Below are positions 2,780-17,766 of a DNA stretch of 36,595 nucleotides, in pieces; within the stretch, counting starts at the first letter, position 1, and each line of letters starts with the position of its first letter. Origin of the DNA: an uncultured bacterium (GTDB lineage Bacteria > Abyssobacteria > SURF-5). Below the pieces are notes generated by a model that was not told the origin of the DNA, made no database searches, and saw nothing but the letters and a program-made list of their open reading frames with translations. Where the stretch lies: NCBI GenBank assembly GCA_964510165.1, contig CAZEBC010000018.1:1-36595 (forward strand). The letters run 5' to 3'. A program made the translations under genes and the position numbers.

Positions 2780-3187
2780 CTATGCCCGACGCGGGGGACC
2801 CGAGGAAAGGCGGCGACTCATCTGGGCCACGCGCCCGGCCATGACCCACGAGCCGGCCGTCACTCCCGCGAACCGCTCTGAAAGAACAGCGGCGCGCTCC
2901 GATTCCATGGCCAGAGCCAGTGCGGCCCCAATGGCTGCTGCGGCCTCCTCTTCGCCCGCGGGTGATTCGGGCGGCTCCGCGAGTAAAACCGTCTGGGCGT
3001 CCGGCTCTATGGTTCTCGAATCTCCCGACTCCTGCCTCGCAACCATCCTTGAGACTACGGCGCCCAGCACCTGCATGCCGACCATCAGGATCGCGAGCAC
3101 GATAAACACGCCGACAAACCGAACGACCAGCGTGCTCATGATGAAGCCCCACGGCAGTTCTATCGCTCTCTGTATCAATTCTTGCAC
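2780..3187 (-). CDS. OadG-family protein (gamma/delta subunit of a Na+-translocating decarboxylase)
   Basis: Single N-terminal TM helix (VGVFIVLAILMVGMQVLG), Pro/Glu linker, EEEAAAAIGAALAL helix and C-terminal SWVMAGR motif. GTG start with SD AAGGAGAG. Confidence 0.65.
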   Translation of the reverse strand: MQELIQRAIELPWGFIMSTLVVRFVGVFIVLAILMVGMQVLGAVVSRMVARQESGDSRTIEPDAQTVLLAEPPESPAGEEEAAAAIGAALALAMESERAAVLSERFAGVTAGSWVMAGRVAQMSRRLSSGPPRRA

Positions 3188-3234
3188 TCGTTCGCTCTCC
3201 TTGTTCCTGAAGGTTCCACGAAGAAGTCTCTCCC

Positions 3235-3262
3235 ATTATACAAGTTTTGGTGGGAGAATCAA
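3235..3262 (-). promoter_or_regulatory. Sigma70-type promoter for the oadG-like operon
   Basis: Minus strand TTGATT-N16-TATAAT, about 50 nt upstream of the GTG at 3187. Confidence 0.6.
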
Positions 3263-3349
3263 GCCGAGCGCGGAATCGCTTTCCGTAATTCGAAACTGAG
3301 GCGCATAAAAGGCAACTTATTAACTAATGAGCGTTGCCGATGCGGCTGC

Positions 3350-3377
3350 TTGACAAATCGGGAAGATGTGGTATAAT
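3350..3377 (+). promoter_or_regulatory. Consensus sigma70 promoter for the leader / DAHP synthase transcript
   Basis: TTGACA (3350-3355), 16-nt spacer, TATAAT (3372-3377), with an extended -10 TG at 3369-3370. Confidence 0.85.
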
Positions 3378-3426
3378 TCTCTCACTCGTTTTGACATATC
3401 GAGGTTAAGCGAGGTCACGCACGGAA

Positions 3427-3501
3427 ATGTCACCGGCAAAGAGGTATTATTACTTCTTTTACTTTAGCTGGTGGCGTTCTGTGCCCGGTCGCCTCCGTTA
3501 G
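3427..3501 (+). CDS. Aromatic-amino-acid attenuator leader peptide, 24 aa: MSPAKRYYYFFYFSWWRSVPGRLR
   Basis: ATG at 3427 to TAG at 3499-3501, with GAGGT SD-like sequence at 3411-3415. Nine of ten consecutive codons are aromatic (4 Tyr, 3 Phe, 2 Trp). Lies between the promoter and a terminator upstream of DAHP synthase. Confidence 0.85.
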   Translation: MSPAKRYYYFFYFSWWRSVPGRLR

Positions 3502-3525
3502 TTTCCTCGAATAAGACAGAGTAAC

Positions 3526-3566
3526 AAGGCCACGGGCTCAGAAGAGTTCGTGGCCTTCTTGTTTTT
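3526..3566 (+). terminator. Attenuator terminator (3:4 hairpin)
   Basis: AAGGCCACGGGCTC-AGAA-GAGTTCGTGGCCTT forms a 14-bp stem with two G-U pairs, followed by CTTGTTTTT. Confidence 0.85.
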
Positions 3567-3580
3567 GGGAACAATACGCG

Positions 3581-3649
3581 CAGCGCGGCGTAGCCGCAAC
3601 CGAAACCCCTCACCCAACCCTATCCCACCGGGAGAGGGCAGGGTGAGGG
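3581..3649. repeat. Composite palindromic repeat, copy 1 (GCCGCAAC tail plus BoxC-like hairpin)
   Basis: CAGCGCGGCGTAGCCGCAACCGAAA followed by CCCTCACCCAACCCTATCCCACCGGGAGAGGGCAGGGTGAGGG (3607-3649). Near-identical hairpins occur at 17708, 21756 and 36535. Confidence 0.85.
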
Positions 3650-3710
3650 AGAAACCAAGACAGGAATTCGCGATCTTTGAACATGAGTGATGTGGAAGGA
3701 GTGATGAGCA

Positions 3711-4661
3711 ATGGCCACCGCGACCGCAACGGAAACATCGAACGACAGTATCCGCACCTGTACTGCCGGGGGAAACGGAAATGGTTCTCATGCGCCGGAA
3801 CCGCGTATGTCCGCCAAGCCATATAGATTGACGAGCCGGGAGGGACACGCCGCATCCACGATAATCGACGTCGCAGGCGTGCCGGTCGGCGGCGAGGCCG
3901 TGGTGCTGATGGCCGGTCCGTGCAGCGTGGAGAGCGAGGATGGCATCATTGAAACGGCGCGCCGCGTGAAGGAATTGGGCGCGCACATCCTGCGCGGAGG
4001 AGCATACAAGCCGCGCACCTCGCCGTACAGTTTCCAAGGGTTGGGGGCCGAGGGCCTTCGCTTCCTTTCGCGCGCACGGGAACTGACAGGTCTGCGCATC
4101 GTGACTGAGCTCATCTCGGTGACCGACATCGAGCCCGTGACGCGCTGCGCCGACCTGATCCAGATCGGCGCCCGTAACGCTCAGAATACACCGCTTCTGT
4201 GCGACGCGGCCCGAAGCGGAAAGCCGATTCTCCTCAAACGCGGCATGAGTTGCACGATCGAGGAATGGCTCATGTCGGCTGAATATGTGCTCTCCCACGG
4301 CAACCCCAACGTGATCCTGTGCGAGCGCGGTATCCGTTCGTTCGAGACGATGACCCGGAACACCCTGGATCTGAGCGCCGTGGTTGTCGCGAAACGCGAG
4401 ACGCATCTGCCTGTAATCGTGGACCCGAGCCACGCAACGGGCAAGCGTGAACTGGTGATCCCGCTGGCGCGGGCCGCGATAGCCGCTGGCGCGGACGGCC
4501 TGCTCGTGGAGGTGCACCCCGACCCCGACAAGGCGCTCTGCGACGGCGCTCAAAGCCTCACCTTTGAGCTGTTTGCCCAACTGGTCAAAGAGGTCACCCC
4601 AATAGCTCACGCCCTGGGACGCACCTTACATGCCGACTGCATGACGCCCACCGTTGTCTAG
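3711..4661 (+). CDS. aroF: 3-deoxy-7-phosphoheptulonate (DAHP) synthase, type I-beta, without an N-terminal regulatory domain
   Basis: Motifs [63 protein letters not shown] at 3696-3701. An alternative start at MSAKPY is possible. Confidence 0.93.
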
Positions 4662-4730: not shown

Positions 4731-4777
4731 CGGTGCGTCCCGATTCGGAATGGTTAAGCGCGCAGCCAGGTGAAACC

Positions 4778-5800
4778 ATGAAAAGACAGATGCCCGCCGC
4801 CGTGTTCGAAGGAAACGGCGTCTTGAACCTTCGCACAAGGCCGGTTCCCGCCATCCGGCTGAATAACGAAGTTCTCCTGAAGATTGAGCTTGCGAGCGTG
4901 TGTGGAACCGATGTCCATATCCTCTCGGTTCCGCCCGGCCATCCCGCAACAGTCAACACGATACTCGGTCATGAGTATGTGGGCGAGGTGATCGATGCGG
5001 GTGACGGCGTCACCCATCTCTCCAAGGGCGACCGTGTTGTGGTGAACCCGAATCTGACCTGCGGCTACTGCGTGTATTGCCGAAAGTCGCTTCCCAACAT
5101 GTGCGAGAACATGACCACGCTCGGCATATTCATTGACGGCGGGTTCACGCAGTATAATGTCGCGCCGTCGGACGCGCTGTTCAAGATATCGAAAGACGTT
5201 CCGCTCGATGAGGCGATATTCGCCGAGCCGCTCTCGTGCGTGCTGAACGGGATGCGCAAGCTGAAACCGATGGCGGGCGAATCGGCGCTCCTGATGGGTG
5301 CAGGGCCGATGGGGCTGTATTTCATAACGATGTTCCGCATGTCCGGGCTCAAGGATATCATCGTCAGCGAGCCGAACCCGAAGCGCGCGCGCATGGCCCG
5401 GCGCTGCGGTGCAACCGACATTGTGAACCCGAAACGAGAATCAGTTCAGGAGCGCGTTCGCTCGAAGACGACTATCGGCGCCGATATCGTGGTAGACGCG
5501 GTGGGAGCGCTTATGTCGGAGAGCATCGCGTGCGCGCGCAGAGGCAGCAGGGTGCTTCTGTTCGGGATGAACAGCAAGGCCGTCTCGGAGATACATCAGA
5601 ACGACATAACCCGGAACGAGATCGAGATAATCGGCAGCTTCATCGCGAACGCTACGTTTCCGGCGACGGTCTCGCTGCTCGAGACGGGGAAGATGAACCT
5701 GCGTAAGCTTGTGACGCACCGGTTCAATCTCGAAGATATCCACGCCGCCATCGAGGCTATGCGGAGCGGAGAGGCCATCAAGGTGTTGGTAGAGACATGA
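4778..5800 (+). CDS. Zn-dependent MDR-family dehydrogenase (sorbitol/threonine dehydrogenase-like)
   Basis: CGTD, LGHE, structural Zn motif CGYCVYC..C, EPLSC, GAGPMG. ATG at 4778 with SD AGGTGA. Confidence 0.88.
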   Translation: MKRQMPAAVFEGNGVLNLRTRPVPAIRLNNEVLLKIELASVCGTDVHILSVPPGHPATVNTILGHEYVGEVIDAGDGVTHLSKGDRVVVNPNLTCGYCVYCRKSLPNMCENMTTLGIFIDGGFTQYNVAPSDALFKISKDVPLDEAIFAEPLSCVLNGMRKLKPMAGESALLMGAGPMGLYFITMFRMSGLKDIIVSEPNPKRARMARRCGATDIVNPKRESVQERVRSKTTIGADIVVDAVGALMSESIACARRGSRVLLFGMNSKAVSEIHQNDITRNEIEIIGSFIANATFPATVSLLETGKMNLRKLVTHRFNLEDIHAAIEAMRSGEAIKVLVET

Positions 5801-5816
5801 GAACTGGGGAAATCCT

Positions 5817-6998
5817 ATGAAAACAATCAGGCTGACGGCTGAGTGGAGTCCCAAGAGGGGATTCGTTCCGGGCGCGAAGGATATCGAAGGCAAGCTCACA
5901 TACCTCGGCAGCCGAGTGTGGCGCAATCCGCGCGTGACGGTTGAGGACAGGCCGACGCCGCAGATCGAAGATGACGAGGTGCTCGTCGAGGTAAAGGCGT
6001 GCGGCATATGTGGCAGCGATGTCCACATGGCACAGGCTGACTCGAACGGCTACATCTTCTACCCCGGCCTGACCGCGTTTCCCGTGACCCTCGGGCATGA
6101 ATTTGCCGGCGTGGTCGTCGAGGCGGGCAAGAGTGCAATCGACAAGCGCACAAACAAGCGTTTCCGCAAGGGCGACCCCGTGTGCGCCGAGGAAATGTTC
6201 TGGTGCGGACGCTGCCGTCCGTGCGCCGACGGCTACCCCAACCACTGCGAGGCGCTCGAGGAACTCGGGTTCACATGCGACGGCGCGTTTGCCGGACACG
6301 TCCGTTTGAAGGCGAAATACTGCTGGAGCCTCGAACCGCTTAGGGAACATTACTCGGAGAAGGACCTATTCGTGGCGGGCAGCCTGGTCGAACCCACATC
6401 AGTCGCGTACAACGCCGTCATCGAGCGGGGCGGCGGCATCAGGCCGGGCGACAACGTCGCCATCCTTGGCGGCGGCCCGATCGGCTTGGCCGCGGCGGCG
6501 ATCCTCAGACGCGCGGGCGCGGCGCATGTGGTCTTGTCTGAACCGTCCGACAGCCGGGCCGAACTTGCGCGAGAGATGGGAGCGACCGCCACAATCAATC
6601 CGCTGCATGAAAGCTTTTCCGACAAATTGCTTGAGATAACCGACGGGTTGGGCGCAAATCTCTATCTCGAGGCCACCGGTCTGCCGGAGATCGTGTGGCC
6701 CGCCATCGAGGACTCTATCTGGCGCGGACGCGCGCTCAACGCCACGGTAGTCATTGTAGCTCGTGCCGACGCGAAAATCCCTGTCACCGGCGAGGTGTTC
6801 CAGGTGAGGCGCGCGCAGATCGTCGGCGCGCAGGGACATTCAGGCCATGGCACCTTCCCGCGCGTGATCAGCGCGATGGCGACCGGCATGGACATGACGC
6901 GGATGGTGACCAAGAAGATACGGCTGGAGGAGGTCCCCGAACATCTCAACCTGCTCCAGACCGACCGCGAGGAGTGCAAGATCACGGCGATTCTGTAA
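5817..6998 (+). CDS. iolM: Scyllo-inosose 3-dehydrogenase (IolM, Thermotoga TM0412 type)
   Basis: Distinctive N-terminus KDIEGKLTYLGSRVWRNP, plus CGICGSDVHMAQ, YPGLTAFPVTLGHEF, VEPTSVAYNAVI and GAQGHSGHGTFPRVI, closely matching the IolM sequence as I recall it. Confidence 0.85.
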   Translation: MKTIRLTAEWSPKRGFVPGAKDIEGKLTYLGSRVWRNPRVTVEDRPTPQIEDDEVLVEVKACGICGSDVHMAQADSNGYIFYPGLTAFPVTLGHEFAGVVVEAGKSAIDKRTNKRFRKGDPVCAEEMFWCGRCRPCADGYPNHCEALEELGFTCDGAFAGHVRLKAKYCWSLEPLREHYSEKDLFVAGSLVEPTSVAYNAVIERGGGIRPGDNVAILGGGPIGLAAAAILRRAGAAHVVLSEPSDSRAELAREMGATATINPLHESFSDKLLEITDGLGANLYLEATGLPEIVWPAIEDSIWRGRALNATVVIVARADAKIPVTGEVFQVRRAQIVGAQGHSGHGTFPRVISAMATGMDMTRMVTKKIRLEEVPEHLNLLQTDREECKITAIL

Positions 6999-7031
6999 TG
7001 TTGCAATGGGGGAAGAACGCTGGAGCAAAAC

Positions 7032-8609
7032 ATGACCGACACGCAATCCCGGCCGCAAAGCCAAGCGCCGCCTGCTCCGTTCACGCTCGCCTATTACGCG
7101 CAGGAAACTCCCGCAAAGGAGGCACTGGCCGACGGCCAGAGGCGATTGACCTTTGCCGACTTCGACCGCCTCGTGAACCGCATGGCCAATGTGCTCGCCG
7201 ACATTGGCGTGCGCCGGGGCGATCGCGTGGCCATGCTCATGTACAACACGATCGAGACGATCGCGGTCGGATACGCCGTCGGCAAGCTCAAGGCCAACAC
7301 GGTGCCCATCGGCTACCGACTCAAGAGCGACGAGGTCGAGTACGTCGTCAACAACTCTCAGGCATCGGCTCTCGTGACGTCTGCCGAGTTCGATGCGGTC
7401 GTCAGGCCGGTCGCCGGCAGGTTCGAAAACATCGCGCCCGGCAAGATTCTGGCGTTCGGAGACGGCGTGCCCTGGGCTGCACGATTCGAGAAGAAGCTTG
7501 ACTCCGCCCCCGACACGTTCGTCGAGACCAATCCCGACGAATCAAGCTCCTCCATCATCTACACATCGGGGACGACGGGCAAGCCAAAGGGCGCGTTCAG
7601 GGACAACCGTCCCCGCGACCTGCAACTGATAATGAGCATCGTCTCGAACTTCCGCATCACGAGCGATGATCGCCACATCGTGGCCGGGCCGCTGTATCAC
7701 AGCGCGCCGCCGGTATTTTCCGGCCTTCACACGATACTTGGCGCGTTCGTGTATGTGATGAAGAGGTTCGAGCCCGAGGAGTTCCTGAAGGCGGTGGACC
7801 GCGAGAAGATCACGAGCACATTCATGGTGCCCACCATGCTCAACATGATCGTCAACCTGCCCGAGGAGGTCAAGGCGCGGTACAACGTCAGTTCCATGCG
7901 AAACATTGTGGTCGGCGGCGCTCCGTTCCACATCAGCACCAAACGCAAGACGATCGACCTGTTCGGCGAGGGATGCCTGTTTGAATTCTACGGGGCGACC
8001 GAAACAGGAATCAACACCATTCTGAGGCCGGAGGAACAGCTTGGGAAGGCCGGCTCATGCGGTAGAGCGTTTGACGGAAACGATATCCTGCTTCTCGATG
8101 AGGACAGGCAGCCAGTCAAGCAAGGCGAGGTCGGCGAGATGTTCATCAAGAACAATATGCTGATCGACGGCTACTTCCGGAATCCGAAGGCCACCGAGGA
8201 GTCCTTTCATGAGGGATATCTGTCGGTGGGCGATATGGCGTTCATGGACGAGGACGGCTATTATTACATCGTCGACCGCAAAAAGGACATGGTGATAAGC
8301 GGCGGCGTGAACATCTATCCCGCCGAGATCGAGATCGTCATCAATCACCATCCGAAAGTATTCGACTCGGCGGTCATTGGCATTCCCGACGACGAATGGG
8401 GCGAAAGCCTGAAGGCGTACGTCGTCTTGAAACCGGGCTGCGCCGCGACGCCCGACGAAATCATCGCCTATTGCCAGGAGAACATCGCGTCTTACAAGAA
8501 GCCAAAGTCAGTGGAGTTCCTGGATGACCTCCCGCGCAATCCAAGCGGCAAAGTGATGAAGAAAATCCTGCGCGAGAAATACTGGACGGGACAAAAGAAG
8601 GTGCACTGA
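7032..8609 (+). CDS. Acyl-CoA synthetase (AMP-forming, class I adenylate-forming enzyme)
   Basis: YTSGTTGKPKG P-loop, FYGATETG, SVGDMA, DRKKDMVISGGVNIYPAEIE, LPRNPSGKVMK. SD GGAG. Confidence 0.92.
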   Translation: MTDTQSRPQSQAPPAPFTLAYYAQETPAKEALADGQRRLTFADFDRLVNRMANVLADIGVRRGDRVAMLMYNTIETIAVGYAVGKLKANTVPIGYRLKSDEVEYVVNNSQASALVTSAEFDAVVRPVAGRFENIAPGKILAFGDGVPWAARFEKKLDSAPDTFVETNPDESSSSIIYTSGTTGKPKGAFRDNRPRDLQLIMSIVSNFRITSDDRHIVAGPLYHSAPPVFSGLHTILGAFVYVMKRFEPEEFLKAVDREKITSTFMVPTMLNMIVNLPEEVKARYNVSSMRNIVVGGAPFHISTKRKTIDLFGEGCLFEFYGATETGINTILRPEEQLGKAGSCGRAFDGNDILLLDEDRQPVKQGEVGEMFIKNNMLIDGYFRNPKATEESFHEGYLSVGDMAFMDEDGYYYIVDRKKDMVISGGVNIYPAEIEIVINHHPKVFDSAVIGIPDDEWGESLKAYVVLKPGCAATPDEIIAYCQENIASYKKPKSVEFLDDLPRNPSGKVMKKILREKYWTGQKKVH

Positions 8610-17690: not shown

Positions 17691-17751
17691 GCGCTGCAAC
17701 CAAAGCTCCCTCACCCTGCCCTCTCCCGGTGGGAGAGGGTTGGGGTGAGGG
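17691..17751. repeat. Composite palindromic repeat, copy 2
   Basis: GCGCTGCAACCAAAGCT followed by CCCTCACCCTGCCCTCTCCCGGTGGGAGAGGGTTGGGGTGAGGG (17708-17751). Confidence 0.85.
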
Positions 17752-17766
17752 GATGTCCACTGCGCA

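Follow-up and report, generated by a model that had tools for sequence, protein, structure and literature searches.

A probable leader-peptide attenuator rich in Tyr, Phe and Trp codons upstream of a DAHP synthase gene in an uncultured bacterium of the Abyssobacteria

The window analysed here, a 36,595-nt stretch of DNA from an uncultured bacterium of the Abyssobacteria (SURF-5), contains a leader region upstream of a gene for 3-deoxy-D-arabino-heptulosonate 7-phosphate (DAHP) synthase, the enzyme of the committed step of the shikimate pathway. Comparative and structural computation indicates that this leader is probably a classical ribosome-mediated transcription attenuator of the DAHP synthase gene, in which translation of a short upstream open reading frame (uORF) would decide between termination and read-through. 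The original prediction had read the region as a leader-peptide attenuator on the basis of this single locus, and the reading has held up under comparison: all seven genomes that possess the orthologous enzyme have, ahead of its gene, the uORF with its run of aromatic codons, a promoter, a terminator and the antiterminator in conserved form.

The leader peptide and its conservation in the phylum

Central to the leader is a forward-strand uORF of 24 codons plus TAG at 3427-3501, encoding MSPAKRYYYFFYFSWWRSVPGRLR, which begins with ATG, is present as originally described and is conserved in frame in six relatives. Its regulatory run, codons 7-16 on the same strand (3445-3474), comprises four Tyr, three Phe, one Ser and two Trp codons, nine of the ten thus being aromatic. 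A uORF this aromatic exceeds what chance would be expected to produce: with ORFs of 6-60 codons counted on either strand, the 4.17-Mb genome has 20 ORF entries from 11 loci with at least six aromatic residues within eight, and two ORFs with seven within eight, one of them the present uORF. Twelve nucleotides 5' of the ATG lies the forward-strand motif GAGG (3411-3414), a possible Shine-Dalgarno sequence and putative ribosome-binding site of the uORF; in the leader alignment (A2), a RAGG motif occupies a position 11-12 nt 5' of the ATG in all seven leaders. When the whole genome was screened for terminators preceded by a leader peptide, whatever its amino acid, the output proved too noisy, an overly strict terminator filter missing even this leader, and nothing is drawn from it.

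Equally important is the distribution of the leader among relatives. The window corresponds to contig C18 in an assembly of 325 contigs (G000; 4.17 Mb, 57.7% G+C), the phylum was sampled through 11 species genomes, and the comparison of leaders and RNA structures covers seven related sequences. Of the other nine genomes in its family, six (G002, G004, G005, G006, G007 and G009) have an orthologous enzyme with 69-78% identity, and alignment of the upstream regions, a check proposed with the original prediction, revealed a co-oriented Tyr/Phe/Trp-rich uORF of the same kind in every one of them (MSPAKKYYGFFYFSWWRSAPARLR, MPSARRYYGFFYFSWWRSVPARLR, MSSARKYFRFYFSWWYSVPARLG, MSPAKRYSYFFYFSWWCSVPARLR, MSPANRYFWFYYFSWGIPVPGRLT and MTPAVRNFWFYYFSWWRPVPVRLE), making seven of seven with the window. 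At the DNA level, the leader is single-copy in seven of the 11 phylum genomes, each time before the orthologous DAHP synthase; the remaining four genomes (completeness 77-97%) yielded neither the leader nor, at E <= 1e-105, an orthologous enzyme. Protein-based scans of metagenome contigs and genome contigs returned only distant enzymes, with at most 63-64% identity.

The pattern of substitution points to coding constraint, the short uORF with its cluster of end-product codons recurring in all seven orthologous loci, where its translation is presumed. Each of the seven leaders contains 2-4 Tyr, three Phe and 2-3 Trp codons, with no more than one non-aromatic codon in positions 7-13, and the alignment shows one and the same start, frame and stop position throughout, G004 having an in-frame deletion of one codon. 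Changes in codons 7-13 are mostly synonymous or aromatic-to-aromatic, as illustrated by G006 and G005, which read Tyr/Asn-Phe-Trp-Phe-Tyr-Tyr-Phe where the window reads Tyr-Tyr-Tyr-Phe-Phe-Tyr-Phe. Furthermore, the stretch from the Phe-Ser-Trp codons through the Leu codon hardly varies in nucleotide sequence, third positions included, while the enzyme has diverged by 22-31%.

Genomic surroundings, by comparison, vary widely. The neighbouring genes encode an outer-membrane efflux protein and an M24 peptidase in G007, an AsmA/YhdP-like protein and an amidohydrolase in G006 and G005, and others again in G002 and G009. The next downstream gene is convergent in G007, G004, G006 and G005, and the conserved unit therefore consists of the leader and one gene.

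Flanking the uORF are two transcription signals. Upstream, the consensus promoter noted originally is present at 3350-3377 on the forward strand as a sigma-70-type TTGACA-16-TATAAT site with an extended -10 TG and 12 of 12 matches, from which transcription of the leader would start near 3384; within 2900-4200, two promoter-like sites were observed against 0.5 expected from shuffles, and all six relatives have a corresponding promoter with 11-12 of 12 matches and the TG. Downstream, an intrinsic terminator on the forward strand (3526-3567) separates the uORF from the structural gene, as is typical of attenuators, and it corresponds to the 14-bp hairpin with a U-rich tail that had been assigned as the 3:4 stem: 3526-3539 pair with 3544-3557 around a 4-nt loop, eight of the 14 pairs are G-C, the T tract CTTGTTTTTG follows, and the predicted stability is -24.7 kcal/mol. 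A terminator-like site lies at the expected place in all six relatives. Between terminator and gene, no promoter-like site with at least 10 of 12 matches was found in any of the seven genomes, the single site with nine of 12 being in G007. Separately, a second TTGAC box (3391-3395; alignment A2 columns 8-12) occurs some 8-12 nt past the presumed start in five of the seven leaders; no matching -10 box comes after it, and its role may be that of an operator or of a segment of the RNA.

The presumed target is a forward-strand gene at 3711-4661 for a type I-beta DAHP synthase of 316 aa (PF00793, E 2.7e-83; NF006421; TIGR01361), with AAGGAG 9 nt 5' of its ATG. A DAHP synthase gene does follow the leader, as originally stated, but the name aroF given to it is only a loose label, because the enzyme is of the Bacillus/Thermotoga type I-beta. 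The distance from the uORF start to the projected start of the enzyme alignment is long and variable, ranging from 185 to 514 nt, and repeats have been inserted in G000 and G009.

Alternative RNA structures and the position of the ribosome

Folding of the 187-nt leader gives -84 kcal/mol, against -51.9 +/- 4.6 kcal/mol for shuffled sequences (z = -7.05; none of 200 shuffles as good). The 2:3 antiterminator, drawn in the original prediction between 3483-3487 and 3533-3537 and between 3491-3494 and 3527-3530, exists and extends to 3478-3494 and 3527-3542: its 5' strand on the forward strand (3478-3494; UCUG, GCCCG and GCCU, in uORF codons 18-23) pairs with AGGC, CGGGC and CAGA (3527-3542), an inner helix being added, and the minimum free energy (MFE) for the fold of 3477-3543 is -26.6 kcal/mol. 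The 3' strand is supplied by the 5' arm and loop of the terminator, so that antiterminator and terminator share a strand, as they do in the attenuator class. The antiterminator fold is the MFE structure of the equivalent stretch in all seven genomes (-19.3 to -30.0 kcal/mol), and its nine core pairs are invariant, holding in 62 of 63 cells of the alignment.

The predicted competitor of the antiterminator is a long imperfect hairpin on the forward strand (~3399-3510; MFE -53.9 kcal/mol), which forms part of both the whole-leader MFE structure and the RNAalifold consensus; within it lie the GAGG motif and the start codon, all of the uORF and the antiterminator 5' strand. At its base, CGAGG pairs with CCUCG; further pairings join the GAGG motif to GCCUC (3491-3495; columns 45-49/124-128, 91.4% of cells paired), GCAC to GUGC, and the start codon and codons 2-4 to the Ser-Trp-Trp codons, and an apical helix lies inside the Tyr/Phe codons. 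Taken together, the consensus of long hairpin and terminator comprises 47 pairs with 88.8% of cells paired, compared with 39-48% when partners are slid, and six pairs are changed on both sides, giving a covariation score that none of 500 shuffles reached. As to the covarying stems that the original prediction proposed to test for, the long hairpin has its six both-sided changes, and the antiterminator and the 1:2 stem have none.

The 1:2 stem itself exists as an imperfect helix, of -5.6 kcal/mol as first drawn, but the role of main blocker of the antiterminator does not suit it. As the main anti-antiterminator it was rejected, with 87% of cells paired, no compensatory changes and single pairs broken in up to three of the seven leaders, and the alignment points to the long hairpin as mainly the conserved competitor. 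Filling the place of the anti-antiterminator known from attenuators, the hairpin at 3399-3510 suppresses the antiterminator in the model in six of the seven leaders, G005 excepted, and the energies, at -26.6 kcal/mol for the antiterminator, -24.7 for the terminator and -53.9 for the long hairpin, are balanced.

The effect of translation was modelled by placing a ribosome at each codon of a transcript cut before the terminator 3' arm, either strictly, with the RNA behind the ribosome barred from pairing across it, or more laxly, with only the ribosome footprint unpaired and pairs free to span the ribosome. Under the strict model, the probability of the antiterminator core pair is 0.00-0.02 in six of the seven leaders when no ribosome is present, 0.78 or higher when the A site is on any of codons 2-16 (two G007 positions, with 0.32 and 0.55, excepted), and 0.00 in all seven from codon 17 or 18 on. 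The second Trp codon sits at the edge of the permissive zone, with a probability of 0.93-0.98 in the six leaders that have it (footprint edge +14) and 0 one codon later. It follows within this model that stalling is permissive no further than the last Trp codon, and that the aromatic run ends exactly where stalling turns non-permissive. In all seven leaders the probability drops from about 1 to 0 between codons 16 and 18, a spacing that fits an attenuator under the strict model, the laxer one being mixed. The originally proposed logic, by which the antiterminator is masked when the ribosome reaches the stop codon and left free when it stalls in the aromatic run, was reproduced in this simple model.

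These elements can be assembled into a coherent, if hypothetical, sequence of events. A strong constitutive promoter would start the leader RNA near 3384; were no ribosome to load, the long hairpin (3399-3510) would sequester 3478-3494, the terminator (3526-3557) would form and transcription would end at about 3560-3567. With aromatic aminoacyl-tRNAs plentiful, the ribosome would reach the UAG at 3499-3501 and cover 3484-3513, and the terminator would again form. Should Tyr-, Phe- or Trp-tRNA run short, the ribosome would stall with its A site in codons 7-16 (3445-3474), opening the long hairpin and leaving 3478-3494 free; this strand could then pair with 3527-3542 as soon as the latter is made, occupying the terminator 5' arm and allowing read-through into the DAHP synthase gene. 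The scheme presupposes uORF translation, stalling, coupling of ribosome and polymerase, suitable timing and pausing, and a given identity of the triggering amino acids, all of which we infer; the elements themselves, their conservation and the mutually exclusive pairings are what the analysis shows.

Amino acids sensed and competing explanations

Several observations weigh against this mechanism or against parts of it. The antiterminator of G005 reaches a probability of 0.91 in the strict model even when no ribosome is present. Results from the laxer model are mixed, the antiterminator being the MFE structure at six of nine aromatic codons in G000, at two in G002, at all in G005, at one in G009 and at none in G007, G004 and G006; the thermodynamic support for the modelled switch accordingly hinges on the assumption made about pairing across the ribosome. 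A GAGG-to-ATG distance of 11-12 nt is long for Shine-Dalgarno spacing. The antiterminator, with no both-sided change among its 14 consensus pairs, displays no covariation, because its strands never vary, and the covariation of the long hairpin is modest with seven related sequences, making it supportive, short of conclusive. With regard to the amino acids sensed, the UGG UGG codons double as the 3' strand of the long hairpin, which means that conservation of the Trp codons may be structural, and the single studied precedent, aroR of Corynebacterium glutamicum (Phe-Tyr-Phe), responded to Phe limitation, Tyr availability being without effect, according to a passage of PMC11802643.

Stalling at Tyr, Phe or Trp codons has the same outcome in the model, which would amount to an OR gate suited to a common first step. 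The data are compatible with a leader that senses all three amino acids, a reading whose chances are put at somewhat below even. A broader proposal, in which OR logic over all three tRNA pools is combined with a takeover from allosteric control in this phylum, a full-length leaderless DAHP synthase being kept alongside, is offered tentatively and draws on the enzymes themselves. The product of 3711-4661 matches positions 64-336 of the 338 positions of the NF006421 profile, with roughly 63 N-terminal positions missing; across the leader-controlled enzymes, the profile match begins only at positions 50-66 in G000, G007, G004, G009 and G002 and is full length in G006 and G005. In enzymes of the Thermotoga type, we take the part missing from these five of seven to be the domain for feedback regulation, in which case the leader-controlled isozyme would depend mainly on the attenuator for its control in five of the seven genomes. 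A second DAHP synthase of G000, on contig C243 (L215 1415-2434), is 54% identical and matches NF006421 over its full length (1-336). No aromatic uORF was found in the 450 nt before this second gene or before the other aromatic genes of G000, namely both chorismate-binding trpE/pabB-type genes and prephenate dehydratase.

The explanation closest to this one retains the same attenuator and restricts its sensing to Phe and/or Tyr, the Trp codons being kept as a UGGUGG hairpin strand and a Trp-stalled ribosome standing too near the antiterminator. It draws on the pairing of UGGUGG with the CACCGG stretch near the start codon in the conserved hairpin, on the location of the second Trp codon at the very edge of the permissive zone and its loss in G006 (Trp-Gly), and on the Phe-only response of the C. 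glutamicum leader in the part of PMC11802643 just cited; yet at least two Trp codons are kept in all seven leaders, G006 and G005 have an extra Trp at codon 9, outside UGGUGG, and the model still gives the antiterminator with a stall at both Trp codons, so that we regard the restriction to Phe and Tyr as rather unlikely. A more radical departure would make the leader an independent small gene or small RNA, its RNA or peptide acting elsewhere, with DAHP synthase transcribed from another promoter and the linkage merely positional. The long and variable spacer (185 to 514 nt), with its repeat insertions in G000 and G009, would suit such an arrangement, and the attenuator RNA and peptide of Sinorhizobium trpL do act in trans (PMC6614838; PMC7298713). 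Against it, the leader lies directly upstream of and co-oriented with the ortholog in seven of seven genomes despite varied neighbours, a conserved promoter-like site in the spacer was not found, an invariant part of the uORF can pair with the terminator 5' arm, a match that a plain terminator would not need, and the codon content of the uORF fits the pathway; an independent gene or RNA is consequently judged very improbable.

Another class of explanation, and the least probable of those weighed, treats the ORF as incidental to a ligand-, tRNA- or protein-binding RNA switch such as a riboswitch, a T-box or a TRAP-like element. The strong structure of the leader (the z of -7.05 given above) and a nucleotide conservation exceeding coding need would be expected of such a switch, and T-boxes do precede DAHP synthase genes elsewhere, as at locus L050 (RF00230, 122.9 bits). 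Rfam covariance models, however, gave no match in the window at gathering scores, Trp_leader, Phe_leader and T-box included, and a search at E up to 10 over 3300-3720 produced eight chance-level matches and no leader or riboswitch family, the same tool detecting the T-box in L050 as a control. Moreover, the frame, start, stop and aromatic identity of variable codons are kept, none of which an untranslated RNA would need. Ribosome-mediated attenuation therefore stays the favoured reading of the leader.

Relation to known attenuators and to leaders in other lineages

Leader-peptide attenuation, the mechanism of the trpL/pheL/hisL class, is well known from trpL and pheL of E. coli (PMC3082878; PMC11802643). 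The present leader resembles these in having a promoter, a short uORF with end-product codons, 1:2, 2:3 and 3:4 pairings and an intrinsic terminator, and in the predicted behaviour, by which termination is favoured once the ribosome reaches the stop codon and read-through while it is stalled. It differs in that three amino acids are represented and the common first step is addressed, whereas trpL and pheL respond to one amino acid and govern terminal-branch genes, and in that its anti-antiterminator also encloses the GAGG motif and start codon of its own uORF.

Multivalence as such has precedents: the leaders of the thr and ilv operons combine, in a single peptide, the codons of several amino acids from a common pathway. 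The present leader is alike in this respect and differs from them in the amino acids and genes concerned. The T-box leaders of Firmicutes, exemplified by L050 (RF00230), likewise exert terminator/antiterminator control over DAHP synthase according to tRNA charging; unlike the present leader, in which no T-box was detected anywhere in the window, they bind uncharged tRNA directly and need no translation.

The original prediction knew of no characterised example of this arrangement, though it made no firm claim of novelty. Its novelty was nevertheless overstated, as aroR-aroF of C. glutamicum is a characterised leader-peptide attenuator of DAHP synthase (Neshat et al., 2014, as summarised in PMC11802643) that had been predicted earlier (PMC4046766). 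Both leaders place an aromatic-codon leader peptide before DAHP synthase, with stalling raising read-through; unlike aroR, which has Phe-Tyr-Phe and no Trp, the present run has nine aromatic codons in ten, of all three kinds, and belongs to another phylum and to a type I-beta enzyme. The likeness, compared by description, is one of functional analogy only. Among earlier surveys, the comparative study of Naville and Gautheret (2010) makes no mention of aromatic, aroF, aroG, aroA, DAHP or shikimate (PMC2965389), and Seliverstov et al. (2005) did not see conserved RNA elements before Phe or Tyr operons in Actinobacteria (PMC1262725). Within the full-text literature, which leaves subscription journals largely outside, a Tyr/Phe/Trp leader before DAHP synthase was found undescribed except in Corynebacterium. 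The locus is thus a further case of a known mechanism in a little-known phylum, and it is not unprecedented.

Similar arrangements were encountered beyond the phylum. Eight of 80 distant DAHP synthase loci from named genomes, all labelled as Clostridia/Christensenellaceae (L071, L080, L084, L102, L104, L108, L115 and L117), combine a consensus promoter with a uORF of alternating Tyr and Phe codons, and the metagenome locus L152 belongs with them. A terminator was detected by script in six of the eight and is visible in the sequence of the other two, and a full-length type I-beta DAHP synthase lies behind the leader. The order of promoter, short Tyr/Phe-rich uORF, hairpin, terminator and DAHP synthase is shared with the window; the sequence is unrelated, Tyr and Phe alternate, and Trp is absent. 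These leaders have no Rfam match, no description of them was found in the full-text literature (again with subscription journals largely outside), and they look like an independent, undescribed family of aromatic attenuators.

Further types of uORF with aromatic runs, some including Trp, occur at an Acidobacteriota-labelled locus and at metagenome loci. The uORFs of L068, L156 and L159 end in S-P-x-G-G-x-V-G, one of the three including Trp; L174 has a Phe/Trp/Tyr run in a uORF before DAHP synthase; and in L090 a Tyr/Phe run and a terminator (-21.4 kcal/mol) are followed by another ORF upstream of DAHP synthase. The screening criterion of at least five aromatic residues in eight is unspecific alone, matching five upstream regions against six reverse-complement controls among 80 metagenome loci; the 80 genome loci gave 15 matches, a count obtained without a control run. 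A first set of 30 loci contained weak and unrelated matches in L024 and L029. The aromatic 'uORF' of L050 was set aside as an artefact of the T-rich terminator of its T-box, which occupies 1972-2224 of this Eubacterium-labelled locus before DAHP synthase.

Control of the committed shikimate step is achieved in E. coli by three feedback-inhibited isozymes together with the TyrR and TrpR repressors, and in Firmicutes by T-boxes. For an uncultured phylum with 11 known genomes, the present locus would represent a third solution, in which a single RNA device could integrate all three end products via ribosome speed. Taken alone, it is an expected use of a classical mechanism; together with C. glutamicum and the similar uORFs of other phyla, it suggests that aromatic leader peptides are widespread at DAHP synthase genes and absent from Rfam-type libraries, with a bearing on genome annotation and on the engineering of aromatic-compound producers.

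Two further features of the surroundings may be recorded. The interval between the terminator and the DAHP synthase start contains a palindromic REP/MITE-like repeat (3577-3674; core CCCTCACCC ... GGGTGAGGG), which recurs at 17706-17752 of the window; the stretch 3577-3674 has 58 further matches in its own genome, a figure that counts both strands and hence corresponds to fewer distinct places. At the G009 locus (L010), the terminator-to-gene spacer of about 400 nt holds three copies of a different short repeat, and the leader-to-gene interval seems to be a hot spot for insertions. Downstream, the genes at 4733-8609 encode a Zn-dependent dehydrogenase, a scyllo-inosose 3-dehydrogenase-like protein and an acyl-CoA ligase; as members of the conserved unit they were rejected, relatives having a convergent gene at that place, and all three are unrelated to the attenuator. 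Among them, the ORF at 5817-6998 matches scyllo-inosose 3-dehydrogenase IolM with 528.7 bits, against a curated cut-off of 450.

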